A program made the position numbers and the translations under genes. Positions 8,362 through 22,197 of a stretch of 64,000 bases of DNA are shown one piece after another. The notes under the pieces were generated by a model. That model saw nothing but the letters and a program-made list of their open reading frames with translations, was not told where the DNA came from and ran no database searches. Each line of letters opens with the position of its first letter. Position 1 is the first letter of the stretch. Location: assembly GCA_951406725.2 (NCBI GenBank), contig OX597835.1, forward strand, positions 26,660,001-26,724,000, written 5' to 3'. The stretch comes from Octopus vulgaris (Eukaryota).

Positions 8362-9108
8362 TTTTTGAGTAAATACTATCTGGGAGACTTTTCTTAAAGT
8401 AGCAGAAATGGCTAAAAAACTTTTTGGCTGCTATTTCTAAAAAATTTCAGTATGTGGCAAAGTAAATTATTTTACTGAGCCCTAATTATATAACGTAATA
8501 TTCTGAATACGTCTTGAATGGTCCTTTTACATACTGAACACTACTTGGTGAAATTAATTAATAACTAATTGATTTTACCCTTGATTATTGATATATATAT
8601 ATATATATATATATATATATATATATACACTAATATACATACTCACTCGTACACACATATACATAATGTATATTTTTGTTATCCAATTAGACGTACTAAT
8701 CGATCGACCAATTTATATATTGATGATTCATCGTCAGGTTAATATCATTAACGACTAGATCGATTGATTGACTGATTGACATATTGAATGACAAAGCATT
8801 ACATCATTCGTAAATCGATCAATAAATATATTGACTGATTGATGGGCCAGCACAGACAAAAGGTTTAATAATCAATATATTTGTTTGATTATTTCTTTCA
8901 TTGATTGAATGATAACTAGATTTATTGATTGTGGTATTGATTTACATTGTTTGATTATCGATCTATTGGTATTTATCACAGTAGGTAATTTAATAACGAA
9001 TTAATTGGCTAGCGATATATTAAATCATTGATTAATGATTGAAAGATTAATTAACTGATGTATTGATTACTTGCAGGTAAAGCGGACAGTATCAATTAGT
9101 CGGCTGAG

Positions 9109-9221
9109 ATGGAACAGGAAAATCGATACAAACAAAGGAAGCCGTTCCCACTGATGATCAAGGCAGAGACTCAGGGTGAGGACGTGAAATTGAAGGATAA
9201 TGATACGTCAAACTCTTTGCC
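9109..9221 (+). CDS. candidate first coding exon (exon 9077-9221) of a 73-aa protein: MEQENRYKQRKPFPLMIKAETQGEDVKLKDNDTSNSL(P)
   Basis: Acceptor TTGCAG|G at 9076/9077, ATG in GAGATGG context, strong donor CC|GTGAGT at 9221 (phase 2), non-repetitive sequence, phase-compatible with the 21580 exon. Confidence 0.55.
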
Positions 9222-9597
9222 GTGAGTTTTACATCTAGCATACTCTCTCTCGTGCGCTCTCTCTCTCTCTCTCTCTTTTATTCTACTACTCTCTCTCATT
9301 ATCTTTATCTATCTATGTATCTCTCGCTCTACCAATCTCTCTCTCTACAGACACACACGCACGCGTACACATGCACGCACAAAAACATATATATGCACTT
9401 TTGTACGTACGTATGTATGTATGTATATATAGATCGATATATAGATAAATACATACATACATATACATACGAACAAATATATATACACACACATACACAT
9501 ACACACACTCACACACACACACACACACACACACACACACACATATCTATATATATATATAATCCTTCCTACTATAACCACAAGGCCTGAAATTTCG

Positions 9598-10265
9598 TAC
9601 AATGTCCAACCATTTCAGACCTGTGGGCTTATGCCGAACGACTACTGTCACATGTGGGACGAGTTCGCGTGTCGGCCGAATCTATCGTGAAAATTGCTCC
9701 ACCACCCTCCCTTAACCGGGAAGGCTAGGCAGTGTTCATCGTACTGGTGGCCATGGTGAAAGAATGTATGTGGTGGACTCGAGCGAAAGGTTTAGAGACA
9801 AACACTTTCCTCTCTGGCCAATCGCTCATCAACTTTTTCAAGTAATACTTGAAAAGGAAGGTGAGAATGGAGAGGCAGGTTTTGTCTCGTGAAAGTTTCA
9901 AAAAAAGGTGGGTGAATGTAGCAAAGATGGTACGTGCAAGTGACGAAATTACTTTGAGCATGATCCTGTAAATCGAAAAAAAGAGTGAGATCACTTTGCT
10001 CTCATGTGTTTATTCTCTGCCTGCTTGAGGTTACCGTGGTCTTTTCCGTATGCTTTTCTTTCCATCGATAAACCCAATCTTGCTTATTACATTTTTAACA
10101 TTTTCTGTGATACACGATCCCTTTTGATCGTTCACCCCCCCCCCTCGATCACTTTTGATCGGAATTTTGTTTTACTCCTTTTTTTTTTCTATTTTCGAAA
10201 AGAAAAGCTCAACATTGTATTTTGTCCCCTCTGTGTTCGACCCTGTGTGGCTAATAAAGAAACTT
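9598..10265 (+). mobile_element. Tx1/L1-clade LINE 3' end (degenerate ORF2 C-terminus plus 3'UTR)
   Basis: FVQCPTISDLW...LVAMVKECMWWTR...FKKRW with two in-frame stops; ends at AATAAAG followed by (TCTA)n. Confidence 0.6.
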
Positions 10266-10269
10266 TTCT

Positions 10270-10840
10270 TTCTATCTATCTATCTATCTATCTATCTATC
10301 TATCTATCTATCTATCTATCTATCTATCTATCTATCTATCTATCTACCTACCTACCTACCTATCTATCTATCTATCTATCTATCTATCTATCTATCTATC
10401 CCTTTCTCTCTCTCCCTCTATCTATCTATCTATCTATCTATCTATCTATCTATCTATCTATCTATCTGTCTATCTATCTGTCTATCTGTCTGTCTGTCTG
10501 TCTATCTATCTATCTATCTATCTATCTATCTATCTATCTATCTATCTATCTATCTATCTATCTATCTATCTGTCTGTCTGTCTGTCTGTCAATCTATCTA
10601 TCTTCCTATCTATCTAGGATTACACCATTTAATATGTCCGTTTCTGATTTTTTAAGTTTAGTTTTGTAGATAATTCGGTTACTGCTTTTAACAATTTGAG
10701 ATATCTCTGAGAGAGAGAGAGAGAGAGAGAGAGAGAGAGAGAGAGAGAGAGAGTGTGTGTGTGTGTGTGTGTGTGTGTGTGTGTGTGTGTGTGTGTGTGT
10801 GTGTGTGTGTGTGTGTGTGTGTGTGTGTGTGTGTGTGTGT
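10270..10840. repeat. (TCTA)n, (GA)n and (GT)n microsatellites
   Basis: Direct inspection. Confidence 0.9.
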
Positions 10841-11554
10841 GATAGCGCATAACAAGTTAGAAGCAGGAAGTGAACGGATGAGAAAAAAAAGCAGAGAACA
10901 TAAGCAGATAAGGAAGTGAAACTTATGGCGATATATTCTGGTTAAGTGACGATGTTTTGGCCCGACATATTATCTTGGAGAACAGGAAAATATACAAGAT
11001 GAAAGCATATTTACTATGTGCGTGGGTGTTAATTGAAGAACACGAGGAGAGTGTGCCGGAAATGGTGTGAGAAAGGGAGAAAAAATGGTGGTTGTGGTGG
11101 TGGTGGTTGTGGTGGTGGTGGAGGGATTTAGTGAAGTTAAGTTGAAGGTAACTAGCATCTTATCCAGGTGGAATATCAATGCCTGTGCTTGATTTTAATA
11201 ATGTACCATTTTCGTGTACCATGTCTACTACTTATGGTAATGTGCTTGTCTTTTATTGTTGTCTGTGTACACATACACACACACGGGCTTGCGCGCACAC
11301 ATGTATACACACACACTTATATACACACATAAACATACATACATACATACAGACAGACAGACAGACATATACACATATATACATACATACACACACACAT
11401 ACATACAAAGAGATATAACTGAATGAACACACACACATGTATATATATACACATAAACATACATATATACACATGCACATGTATATATACATACACACAT
11501 ACATACACAGGTACGTACATACGTACATACATAAATGCATACAAGTATATTCTG

Positions 11555-19618: not shown

Positions 19619-19998
19619 GGAGGCGCAATGGCCCAGTGGTTAGAGCAGCGGACTCGCGGTCGTAGGATCACGGTTTCGATTCCCAGACCGGGCGTTGTAG
19701 TGTTTATTGAGCGAAAACGCCTAAAGCTCCGCGAGGCTCCGGCAGGGATGGTGGTGATCCCTGCTGTACTCTTTCACTACAACTTTCTCTCACTCTTACT
19801 TCCTGTTTCTGTTGTACCTGTATTTCAAAGGGCCGGCCTTGTCACTCTCTGTGTCACGCTGAATATCCCCGTGAACTACGTTAAGGGTACACGTGTCTGT
19901 GGAATGCTCAGCCACTTACACGTTAATTTCACGAGCAGGCTGTTCCGTTGATCGGATCAACCGGAACCCTCGTCGTCGTAACCGACGGAGTGCTTCCC
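19619..19998 (+). mobile_element. SINE family B, full length
   Basis: A/B boxes; tail ...GGAACCCTCGTCGTCGTAACCGACGGAGTGC shared with 42747. Confidence 0.9.
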
Positions 19999-20032
19999 TA
20001 ATGTACATATACGTATGTATATACGCATAAGT

Positions 20033-20320
20033 GGAGGCACATGGCCCAGTGGTTAGAGCAGTGGACTCGCGGTCGAGGAATCGCGGGTTCGAATCTCAAA
20101 CCGGGCGATGTGTGTGTTTATGAGCGAAACACCTGAGCTCCGTGCGGCTCCGGCAGAAGGTAATGGCGAAACTTCTGCTGACTCTTTCGCCACAACTTTC
20201 TCTCACTCTTTCCTCCTGCATCTTGCGTCCCGTCCAAGTGGGGAACCTATACGCCAAGGAAACCGGGAAACCGGCCCTTATGAGCCAGGCATGGCTCGAG
20301 AAGGAACAAACAACAACAAA
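20033..20320 (+). mobile_element. SINE family B with alternative tail
   Basis: A/B boxes, distinct 3' region ending GAGAAGGAACAAACAACAAC. Confidence 0.85.
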
Positions 20321-21579
20321 AAAACATATATGCATATATATATATATATATAATTTATATATATATATATATAATTTATATTATTATCTGATTGAACACC
20401 ACGCATCCTTTTCCAAGTAAGTTTTATCTTAATAACTCCGATTCGACTCTATTCTTCCTTTTATACTTTCGTTTTCTCCCTTCCTTTCTCTTATTCTTTT
20501 ACCTCCTCTTCTCACATTATTCTATCCTTCTACTCTTTCGTTTTCTCTCTTCCTTTCTGTTATTCTTTTTGCCTCTCCTTCTCCCTCTTTTTTTCTCTCT
20601 TATCCTGTTTCCACATCTTTTCCTCTTCCCTTTACAGTTCACTGTCTGTCACTCTTTCTCCCTTACTCTTCCTCCTTTGCTCACGTGACCATCGGCCATT
20701 TTTCTTTCTTCTCCCTTGTGTTTCTGTTTTTCTTCCCGTTTCAGCTGGACAGGGAAGACGTATTGTCCTCTGTCTCCTGTCCAGGCTTGTTTCTTCCTGT
20801 TCGCCACAACAACCTCGTTTAGGCTTAGCAGCCCTTCCTGTTTGTTTTCACTGTCCTGTTTTTGCCACCAAAATTAACCCTCCGCAAGCTCGCAAATTTT
20901 ATTTAATTTGCTTTGCGTGAGCAACTGTTTTATCGAAGGCGTATCTTGTCATGAATTGCTCGAAATACGGACTGGATAAACAGCCGACAACTGATGAAGG
21001 GTCGTTCTTCGTGTTGCGCGTCTTGTTTTCCATTTGTTTCTTTCGTTCCTTGCAAAACAACTTCCTTCTTCCATGTCCTCGTACTTCATTTTTTGCTGTT
21101 TATGTTTTGTGACCTCCTGTGCCAACATATGCATATGTATATACGTATAATACATGTATGTACGTATACGTATGTATATAAGCATATATATATATATAAC
21201 AAATTTGAGTTGTGGGGTACCGCACGAGTGGAATTATATACGAAAGAAGGTTTGAAAATGCAATTGCATTTTCAAACCTTCTTTCGTATATATATATATA
21301 TATATATATATATATATATATATATATATATATATATAGATAGATAGATAGATAGATAGATAGATAGATAGATAGATAGATAGATAGATAGATGATAGAT
21401 AGATAGATAGATAGATAGATAGATAGTTTATATGTATATGCCCATATATGCACACACACGCATATATATATATATATATATATATATATATATATATATA
21501 TATACACATACATATACACATGTATAGCCTATTATATTAAACATCCTAGTGTTAAATGCCGTTTTCTCTTTCATTGCAG

Positions 21580-21688
21580 GTTGTCCGAAATTCTCGAATC
21601 AAAATCTGCAAATTTATCAATACCTCGCTCGCCTCATCAGAAATCTTCTTTCACCTTTGACTTCCCAGTGGAGACAACCAGCCAGTGA
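21580..21688 (+). CDS. candidate terminal coding exon of the 73-aa protein: (P)LSEILESKSANLSIPRSPHQKSSFTFDFPVETTSQ*
   Basis: Strong polypyrimidine acceptor TTTTCTCTTTCATTGCAG|G; phase-2 frame open to TGA 21686-21688; AATAAA at 21815-21820. Confidence 0.55.
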
Positions 21689-22197
21689 TCGAATCACACC
21701 CGCGTCGCAAACACAGTTTCCTGCCATGGCTGCCACCACCGCCGCTATCGTTGTCAACACCACCACCGCCGCCACCACCAAAGCAAGCAACAACATTGCT
21801 ACTATTATGACTGCAATAAAGAGAATAATCACCACTGCCACCACCACCACCATCACCATCCTCATCATTATCATCATCATCATCGCCAATACCATCATTA
21901 TCGTCAATACCAAAGATGTTAACATGACCACCGTTACGTAATTCCGTAGTTGGGAATTACGTAGCGGTGGTCGCTGCCTGTTCGCCCGCGCGCACTCACG
22001 CTCACACACACGCATACAGAGAGACAAACAGACTGATATATACGCTCACATACGTACATCCATAGGCAGTATGCATTACAAAATTTAGGGGACATGTATA
22101 GCTATTAAATGGTAATATATATAAATATATATCGATAATAATTAATTTTATTTTATCGCATTTTGACTTTGTTTATATATATATATACATATAAAAG

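Follow-up and report, generated by a model that had tools for sequence, protein, structure and literature searches.

The window, a 64,000-nucleotide stretch of Octopus vulgaris DNA in whose coordinates positions are given, carries a two-exon gene for a 73-residue protein (Table 1), which by the comparative sequence evidence below is real and conserved. The two coding exons join to a frame of 222 nt, and the 73 encoded residues match exactly the product of an earlier sequence-only reading, whose exons, phase and stop are borne out as well. By inspection, the acceptor TTGCAG/G lies at 9076/9077, the ATG at 9109 has G at -3 and +4, the donor of the first coding exon is CC/GTGAGT at 9221/9222, and a pyrimidine tract precedes the second acceptor at 21579/21580. 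Since the first coding exon opens at an acceptor, an upstream non-coding exon is implied; this exon was not found. Further AATAAA hexamers are present at 22200, 22249 and 23565. Over 264 kb we counted 4 CRE and 9 CArG sites, which are raw counts without a control and with the first exon not located.

Table 1 Features of the two-exon gene and motifs of its product. Row counts refer to the seven-row family alignment.
Feature	Position	Strand	Description
First coding exon	9077..9221	+	32 nt 5' UTR, residues 1-37 and 2 bases of codon 38; paralogue exon architecture identical
In-frame TAG	9097..9099	+	upstream of the ATG; shuts the reading frame, provided that splicing is at the 9077 acceptor
MAPK D-site	9130..9159	+	K8-I17: basic patch, P12, P14, L15-x-I17; two-spacing, proline-rich, DCC/MEK1-like; 7/7 rows
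SUMO-like IKAE	9157..9168	+	2/7 rows; such a motif in 15% of shuffles
Conserved central block	9187..9213	+	K27, K29, D30, D32, S34, N35 invariant
Phase-2 GT-AG intron	9222..21579	+	12,358 nt, rich in microsatellites; position shared with the paralogue's 1,099-nt intron
Last exon, coding part	21580..21688	+	residues 38-73, then TGA at 21686-21688
LSEILE (39-44)	21581..21598	+	fits PP2A-B56 LxxIxE; 5/7 rows; degenerate in both B-type sequences
P53-R-S55-P56	21623..21634	+	the copy's sole S/T-P and predicted phospho-acceptor for ERK; P53, S55, P56 invariant, 7/7
FTFDFP (62-67)	21650..21667	+	F-site/DEF; overlapping FxF and FxFP, 7 and 9 residues past S55
AATAAA	21815..21820	+	candidate polyadenylation signal

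The exon join could not be proved from splice signals by themselves, because comparable ones are frequent inside the long intron, where a pyrimidine tract of equal strength precedes 9 of 237 YAG sites and GTRAGT donors number 11. Support for the join comes from an identical NCBI model, from full-length relatives that are continuous over the junction, and from a paralogue whose intron sits at the matching CC/N codon position. The model, CAI9738979.1, is listed as a hypothetical Octopus vulgaris protein, so the gene is uncharacterised and already annotated, and not hidden as had been claimed; in the literature searched, no paper named its accessions. A search for sequencing runs containing the sequence listed none recorded as RNA, and the case for splicing and expression in Octopus vulgaris rests on the NCBI model and homology. 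Intervening exons that alter the frame had been named as a threat to the model, but a family HMM run in six frames over 264 kb matched just the four exons of two genes (next best E 3.6), so the intron holds no family-like coding exon.

The second of these genes is a paralogue 88 kb away in tail-to-tail orientation, sharing the intron position. Other relatives were found in Argonauta (86%) and in four assembly clusters (64-70%). The search of 1.84 billion representatives contributed 3 matches, with P0009 and P0010 excluded as long repetitive proteins in which 22-25 positions matched 9-11 times over; two weak genome matches, on contigs C2 and C24 (E 4.1 and 6.3), were set aside because the frames examined there lacked the family motifs. 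As to codon-level conservation, proposed earlier as a check, the paralogue pair has a pN of 0.29 against a pS of 0.91, at which synonymous sites are saturated, differs at 23, 18 and 51 first, second and third codon positions, and uses different codons at 26 of 41 identical residues. With pN far below pS, these alignments indicate protein-level constraint between the paralogues. The family alignment comprises seven rows with a mutual likeness of 56-99%, which do not count as independent, and two of them are 99% identical; 36 residues are invariant, 11 of which lie within residues 27-43, outside the MAPK motifs.

The claim that the protein is domainless agrees with Pfam, where neither of the 2 exons and, at E up to 10, none of the 6 full proteins gave a match. 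PDB sequences gave a single chance match (E 0.68), and no longer fused form was present among proteins of 73-2000 aa. In the Atlas, the top feature score was 0.80 for P0001 and P0008 had no usable match; the Atlas model of the 73-residue protein had pLDDT 0.29 and pTM 0.11, values consistent with disorder, and the structure matches were discarded as based on this model. Among the neighbours, 150 of 408 filtered ORFs in 264 kb were scanned and 3 had Pfam matches, none informative for synteny.

What the family does conserve is a series of short linear motifs. The D-motif consensus (basic residue or residues, a linker, hydrophobic-x-x-hydrophobic-x-hydrophobic, and proline), scored with a regular expression built on the generic greater DCC consensus of the class definitions in PMC4670726, is present in all seven rows and in 2.7% of shuffles. 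An FxFP C-terminal to the phospho-acceptor, a site of the F-site/DEF type as defined in PMC4459106, likewise occurs in every row and in 1.7% of shuffles; F62, T63, F64, F66 and P67 are invariant. The sequence-only reading had placed a D-site (KQRKPFPLMI), PRSP and FxFP in this sequence, with FxFP just downstream of the SP as in Elk/TCF proteins. The D-site upstream of the S/T-P and FxFP downstream of it are conserved in this order in 7/7 sequences, compared with 0 of 200,000 shuffles in that order and 5 of 200,000 with all three in any order, the patterns having been picked after the sequence was seen. In no family member has the D-site drifted further than in the copy in the window (F13, M16), and six of the seven relatives have an S/T-P inside theirs.

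Two further motifs of that reading fared less well. The SUMO consensus is hydrophobic-K-x-E, and the IKAE assigned to it is not conserved and probably incidental, judging by its rarity in the alignment and its frequency in shuffles. LSIP follows the calcineurin LxVP-type pattern, and six of the seven rows have it. Its proline, however, doubles as the one at -2 of the SP site, and 6.6% of shuffles have such a motif, so the calcineurin reading is weak. The PP2A-B56 motif LxxIxE, as defined in PMC10970375, was found in 2.3% of shuffles with the strict pattern and in 18.5% with the broad one. The MEK1-like D-site of some relatives and the LxxIxE motif are new here; these, and the paralogue, had escaped the sequence-only reading.

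In a complex model with the ERK of Octopus bimaculoides (P0090), the D-site was placed in the ERK docking groove with a top value of 0.65 and a spread of 0.64-0.65 across three runs, the best of three control models reaching 0.00. The 0.65 mark was attained by 51/78 solved and 2/108 mismatched microbial pairs and by 71/105 solved and 2/126 unrelated eukaryote pairs, a calibration that leaves out peptides and disordered chains and cannot tell which MAPK binds. The runs had at least 23% of contacts in common, with a partner pLDDT of 38-40. Residues 5-7, 10-12 and 14-17 occupy the groove in the model, and the confident ERK-side interface (E81, H125, Y128, R135, L157-C161, Y316, D318, D321) agrees with the CD/DRS residues named in PMC11982978 and PMC12550783. 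Since D-site/ERK complexes have already been solved, the model's pass may derive from structures it has learned. The D-site is predicted by modelling to dock in the D-recruitment groove of ERK. The FxFP had no confident placement in this model, in which ERK was unphosphorylated; the F pocket arises only upon activation, according to PMC4459106.

The C-terminal regulatory regions of Elk-1/TCF and LIN-1, as described in PMC4459106, have a D-site, P-R-S-P and an F-site closely downstream (Elk-1 S389 to F395; here S55 to F62/F64). Elk-1/TCF proteins have an ETS domain, whereas the 73-residue protein stands alone, with no ETS domain by Pfam in any of the 6 full proteins; at least 15 ETS matches were found in the genome, none on the contig of this gene (C22). 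When the seven family rows were compared by tblastn with stretches of about 3.2 kb at 15 ETS loci, among them the Elk-like locus L036, nothing significant emerged (best E 0.027, at a locus other than the Elk-like one). By these comparisons the likeness to Elk is a convergent layout and not membership, and identity as an Elk fragment was rejected for want of an ETS domain on the contig and of similarity to the Elk-like locus on C24. To the MEK1 N-terminal D-site (ERK activation inhibitor peptide I; sequence from PMC5725016, identities counted by eye) P0005/P0006 have 7/10 identities, the paralogue 6/10 and the present copy 3/10. The model places the D-site of the 73-residue protein in the same ERK groove; MEK1 has a kinase domain, which the 73-residue protein lacks while adding a phospho-acceptor and an F-site.

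PEA-15 carries a folded death-effector domain. Like the protein proposed here it is small and non-catalytic and engages both ERK docking surfaces, but has no canonical D- and F-sites (PMC4459106), while in the present family the motifs are canonical and Pfam recognises no domain; PEA-15 also tethers ERK, as stated in PMC4127788. IEX-1 (IER3) is an ERK substrate controlling B56-PP2A, going by titles cited in PMC3660565, and the microprotein APPLE binds ERK1/2 and PP1/PP2A (PMC12247205). Both are small ERK-binding proteins tied to PP2A, whereas here the phosphatase link is a motif match in 5/7 rows. No homology to PEA-15, IER3 or APPLE appeared among the homologue matches, and Pfam, searched to E 10, gave no link to PEA-15 or IER3 either.

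We consider it about an even chance (roughly 0.5) that the protein is an unfolded ERK substrate that buffers ERK through competition. The 73-residue chain, predicted to be unfolded, would likely dock on ERK and be phosphorylated by it at S55. The F-site would add affinity for activated ERK only, so that active ERK would be gripped at two points, and ERK output would likely be dampened or reshaped as the protein competes with MEK, phosphatases and substrates for the two docking sites. The net effect would be competitive because there is no effector domain; in isolation, D-site and F-site peptides are competitive ERK2 inhibitors in vitro (PMC3073974). The S/T-P within the D-site of most relatives could act as a release switch, and A-type copies may tether PP2A-B56, resetting the phosphosite. 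Buffering of this kind would require an abundance near that of ERK. The invariant blocks 2-7 (partly in the modelled interface) and 27-43 are not accounted for by competition, which suggests a third binding partner.

Such a partner leads to a tentative alternative, in which ERK docking and phosphorylation are the input only and the output is a partner of the central block (27-43) or the N-terminus, as in small phosphatase-regulating phosphoproteins. The 11 of 36 invariant residues in 27-43 speak for it, as does the substrate layout of Elk-1 with D-site, SP and FxFP (PMC4459106), but Pfam, PDB and Atlas gave no lead to a partner. It is distinctly unlikely that A-type copies are ERK-PP2A(B56) adaptors, bridging through LSEILE and speeding or blocking the dephosphorylation of ERK in the manner reported for IEX-1 and APPLE, with B-type copies as pure competitors. 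In five rows L-S-x-I-x-E, with Ser second and Ser/Thr seventh, agrees with the motif preference given in PMC10970375, and it lies 11-16 residues from S55. Against this, the broad pattern is common in shuffles, and neither B-type row has kept the motif although P38, L39, S40, E41 and L43 remain invariant, pointing to a different reader.

The cognate kinase could be p38 or JNK and not ERK, which we find quite improbable: K11-P12-x-x-L15-x-I17 also suits the short-linker two-spacing (JIP1) geometry, many DCC-class motifs bind p38 too (PMC4670726) and the complex model is unable to rank MAPK family members, but the invariant prolines with upstream basic residues favour the DCC class, primarily an ERK2 binder (PMC4670726), F-sites are described for ERK2 substrates (PMC4459106), and the D-site resembles the MEK1 peptide. 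There is very little probability that the two exons form the end of some longer protein or are what remains of an Elk/TCF ETS factor. An acceptor opens both first coding exons, the paralogue frame is open back to it, and the F-site after PRSP is reminiscent of Elk-1 387-399 (PMC4459106); against this, the in-frame TAG precedes the ATG, five of six relatives in alignment A2 share the start Met, no long form was met in the size range searched, none of the at least 15 ETS matches lies on C22, and the Elk-like gene on C24, which ends in an SP/FQFP tail of its own, bears no similarity to the family. That unrelated open frames were joined by chance, or that the RNA is non-coding, would fit the many intronic splice signals of like strength, but relatives that span the junction, the common intron position and the low pN largely refute it, leaving it next to no weight.

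It is unlikely but conceivable that these genes form a dedicated cephalopod family of MEK-mimicking microproteins clamping active ERK at both docking sites, in two tandem types of which A would also recruit PP2A-B56 and B would not, the pair setting ERK signal duration. If true, this would be a lineage-specific control layer on the ERK pathway, which serves plasticity and regeneration. To our knowledge, small ERK regulators mostly rely on folded domains or non-canonical contacts, and a natural protein with little besides a D-site like that of MEK, a single phospho-acceptor and an F-site would reduce a two-point ERK ligand to its minimum. Whether a docking-only substrate acts as an endogenous ERK buffer can be asked directly, as the 73-mer is synthesisable and cheap, and an orphan, duplicated and conserved octopod gene listed as hypothetical would thereby have a testable function.

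The elements of the two-exon gene proposed in the sequence-only reading (exon, ATG, donor, acceptor, TGA and AATAAA) were all found, and the joined frame gives exactly the 73 residues proposed. By themselves the splice signals are not decisive for the exon join, since an equally strong pyrimidine tract is present at 9 of the 237 YAG sites within the intron, which also holds 11 GTRAGT donors. The gene is a real one with an existing database record, and in this sense not hidden as had been claimed: a protein search with the first exon as query (three matches from three candidates among proteins of 73-2000 aa) gave as best match NCBI CAI9738979.1, 'Hypothetical predicted protein [Octopus vulgaris]', which is letter for letter the same. 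This record may come from the same assembly as the window and is not independent support. Independent support is provided by the relatives found, i.e. Argonauta hians GAB1607810.1 (73 aa, 86% identity) and the assembly proteins P0005/P0006 (69%), P0007 (70%) and P0008 (64%).

Features of the 73-aa gene (window coordinates), its paralogue (contig coordinates) and the family alignment (residues).
Feature	Position or size	Strand	Remark
Window	G000:C22:26,660,001-26,724,000		part of 2.8-Gb genome
First coding exon	9077-9221		ATG at 9109; phase-2 donor
Intron	12,358 nt		ends at acceptor 21579/21580
Stop TGA	21686-21688
AATAAA	21815
In-frame TAG	9097-9099		upstream of ATG 9109
Paralogue	G000:C22:26,770,895-26,769,557 (L009:6895-6771 + 5671-5557)	minus	79 aa
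Paralogue first coding exon	C22:26,770,895 (ATG) to 26,770,771	minus
Paralogue intron	1,099 nt		same codon position as window gene's intron
Paralogue last exon	C22:26,769,671-26,769,557	minus
N-terminal stretch	2-7		invariant
D-site core	Q9, R10, K11, P12, P14, L15, I17		invariant
Central block	K27-N35, P38-L43		conserved
SP site	P53-x-S55-P56		invariant
F-site	F62-T63-F64-x-F66-P67		invariant

The contigs of P0005 (946 nt) and P0006 (942 nt) carry the whole frame within less than 1 kb, with no space for introns sized as in the window's gene, suggesting that they derive from spliced transcripts; P0008 was seen on 80 contigs, the longest of 2,797 nt. Another assembly protein, P0004 (165 aa, 6 contigs), equals P0006 over its first 73 residues and has Trp at the P0005/P0006 stop position followed by 91 UTR-like residues. 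Such a product would be in keeping with an A-to-G substitution at the stop, by A-to-I editing or as an allele; a squid proteomics preprint reports that its data hold no stop-to-Trp recoding (10.64898/2025.12.15.694494). Searching 1.84 billion cluster representatives with the family profile returned three matches at E up to 0.001, one being a full-length relative (P0008) and the other two repeat proteins, which were discarded. Pfam, PDB sequences and Atlas gave no usable match, in line with the domainless product proposed. Named carriers are two octopods only, and the family is tentatively restricted to cephalopods, as seen with a narrow profile that distant relatives sharing only short motifs would escape. 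Papers in the searched library do not name the family accessions, and topic searches of titles and abstract openings, with subscription journals outside, returned nothing on the family.

The window's gene has a paralogue (56-57% identity) 88 kb downstream of it, in the opposite orientation so that the two stand tail to tail; the genome search found no third copy, and a family HMM across 264 kb matched the four exons of the two genes and no others. Between the two genes, over 72 aligned codons, pS is 0.91 (saturated) against a pN of 0.29, the differences at codon positions 1, 2 and 3 number 23, 18 and 51, and different codons are used at 26 of the 41 identical residues, a pattern of constraint on the protein. 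In the tree Argonauta is the partner of the window's gene (100/100), and P0008 that of the paralogue (99/96; B-type, the others being A-type); the tree settles only these two groupings. Between the two genes there is a Mariner/Mos1 transposase HTH fragment (L007:1079-1621, minus strand, E 3.5e-22), and 38 kb upstream of the paralogue, amid microsatellites and repeats, a short C2H2 zinc-finger frame (L013:5214-5798, minus strand) that is likely a retroelement remnant.

In the family alignment, which has seven rows including a pair at 99% identity, 36 of the 73 positions are invariant. The D-site, PxSP and FxFP motifs that had been pointed out follow one another in the proposed order, with 6-20 residues from Ser to F-site, in all seven rows, whereas 200,000 shuffles of the 73-aa protein produced no such case; as the patterns were picked after the sequence was seen, the conservation outweighs the shuffle count as an argument. 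The SUMO reading of IKAE was rejected, the motif being present in two rows only and arising in 15% of shuffles. The LxVP-like stretch, a possible calcineurin motif, occurs in six rows, and its proline is also a residue of the SP site. The window copy differs from the other six rows at 9145-9156, with Phe13 in place of Ser/Thr and Met16 in place of Gln, so that an S/T-P site within the D-site is lost. A second S-P directly before the F-site is present in five rows and absent from the window copy and Argonauta. A MEK1-like D-site and an LxxIxE motif are two features beyond the earlier proposal. The ERK activation inhibitor peptide derives from the MEK1 N-terminus. Out of 10 positions of this peptide (PMC5725016), P0005/P0006 share 7, the paralogue 6 and the window copy only 3; the K3/K5/I9/L11 numbering in PMC12550783 agrees with the MEK1 identity.

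The layout is also that of Elk. None of the 15 ETS matches listed for the genome is on C22, the contig of the window, no family row matches the 15 loci significantly, and the Elk/TCF-like gene L036 (G000:C24:34,031,892-34,035,131; tail HFWS..SP..SP..FQFP) retains its own SP and FQFP, so the family was rejected as an Elk fragment and the common layout is best read as convergence.

For modelling, the ERK activation-loop exon was located in the genome and used as query to retrieve Octopus bimaculoides ERK (P0090). A second TEY-type kinase exon (L031, G000:C10:70,458,682-70,461,713) looks like a possible atypical MAPK; the ERK1/2 exon is separate, on C1. Modelled without family alignments, P0090 and the 73-mer scored 0.65, 0.64 and 0.65, and all three controls 0.00. 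The calibration mark was met by 51/78 solved against 2/108 mismatched microbial pairs and by 71/105 solved against 2/126 unrelated eukaryote pairs; this calibration covers neither peptides nor disordered chains. The three runs agree in at least 23% of contacts, the partner pLDDT is 38-40, and only residues 5-7, 10-12 and 14-17 are placed with confidence, against E81, H125, Y128, R135, L157-C161, Y316, D318 and D321 of ERK, described as docking groove and CD site (PMC11982978). Since D-site complexes have already been solved, the pass shows likeness to these rather than proving binding. The F-site has no placement; the modelled ERK is unphosphorylated, and the F-site pocket is described as arising only on activated ERK (PMC4459106).

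The gene is duplicated and constrained and codes for a short protein without known domain carrying an ordered ERK motif triad, the D-site of which is predicted in the ERK groove. We infer, with a probability of about 0.75 for both parts together, that the protein would dock active ERK at two points and be phosphorylated at S55. As the protein lacks an effector domain, competition with MEK, phosphatases and substrates for the groove would be its simplest net action, and to this we give even odds; these competitors are described as using that same groove (PMC12550783), and isolated D-site and F-site peptides as competitive ERK2 inhibitors (PMC3073974). Competition leaves the central block unexplained, which keeps a phospho-switched effector in play as a less probable alternative. 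An ERK-B56 adaptor in the manner reported for IEX-1 or APPLE is unlikely; LSEILE (39-44) matches the PP2A-B56 LxxIxE motif (PMC10970375) in five rows and is degenerate in both B-type rows.

Docking on p38 or JNK in place of ERK, for which the MAPK docking classes give the background (PMC4670726), seems decidedly improbable, and the model itself cannot order ERK above either. That the two exons belong to a longer protein is very improbable. The frame of the paralogue's first coding exon is open in phase back to the acceptor, and that copy may have an N-terminal extension. An artefact, given the independent relatives, has a negligible chance. Small ERK modulators are already known; one that is stand-alone, motif-only and MEK-like, such as we propose for docking on active ERK, appears to be new.
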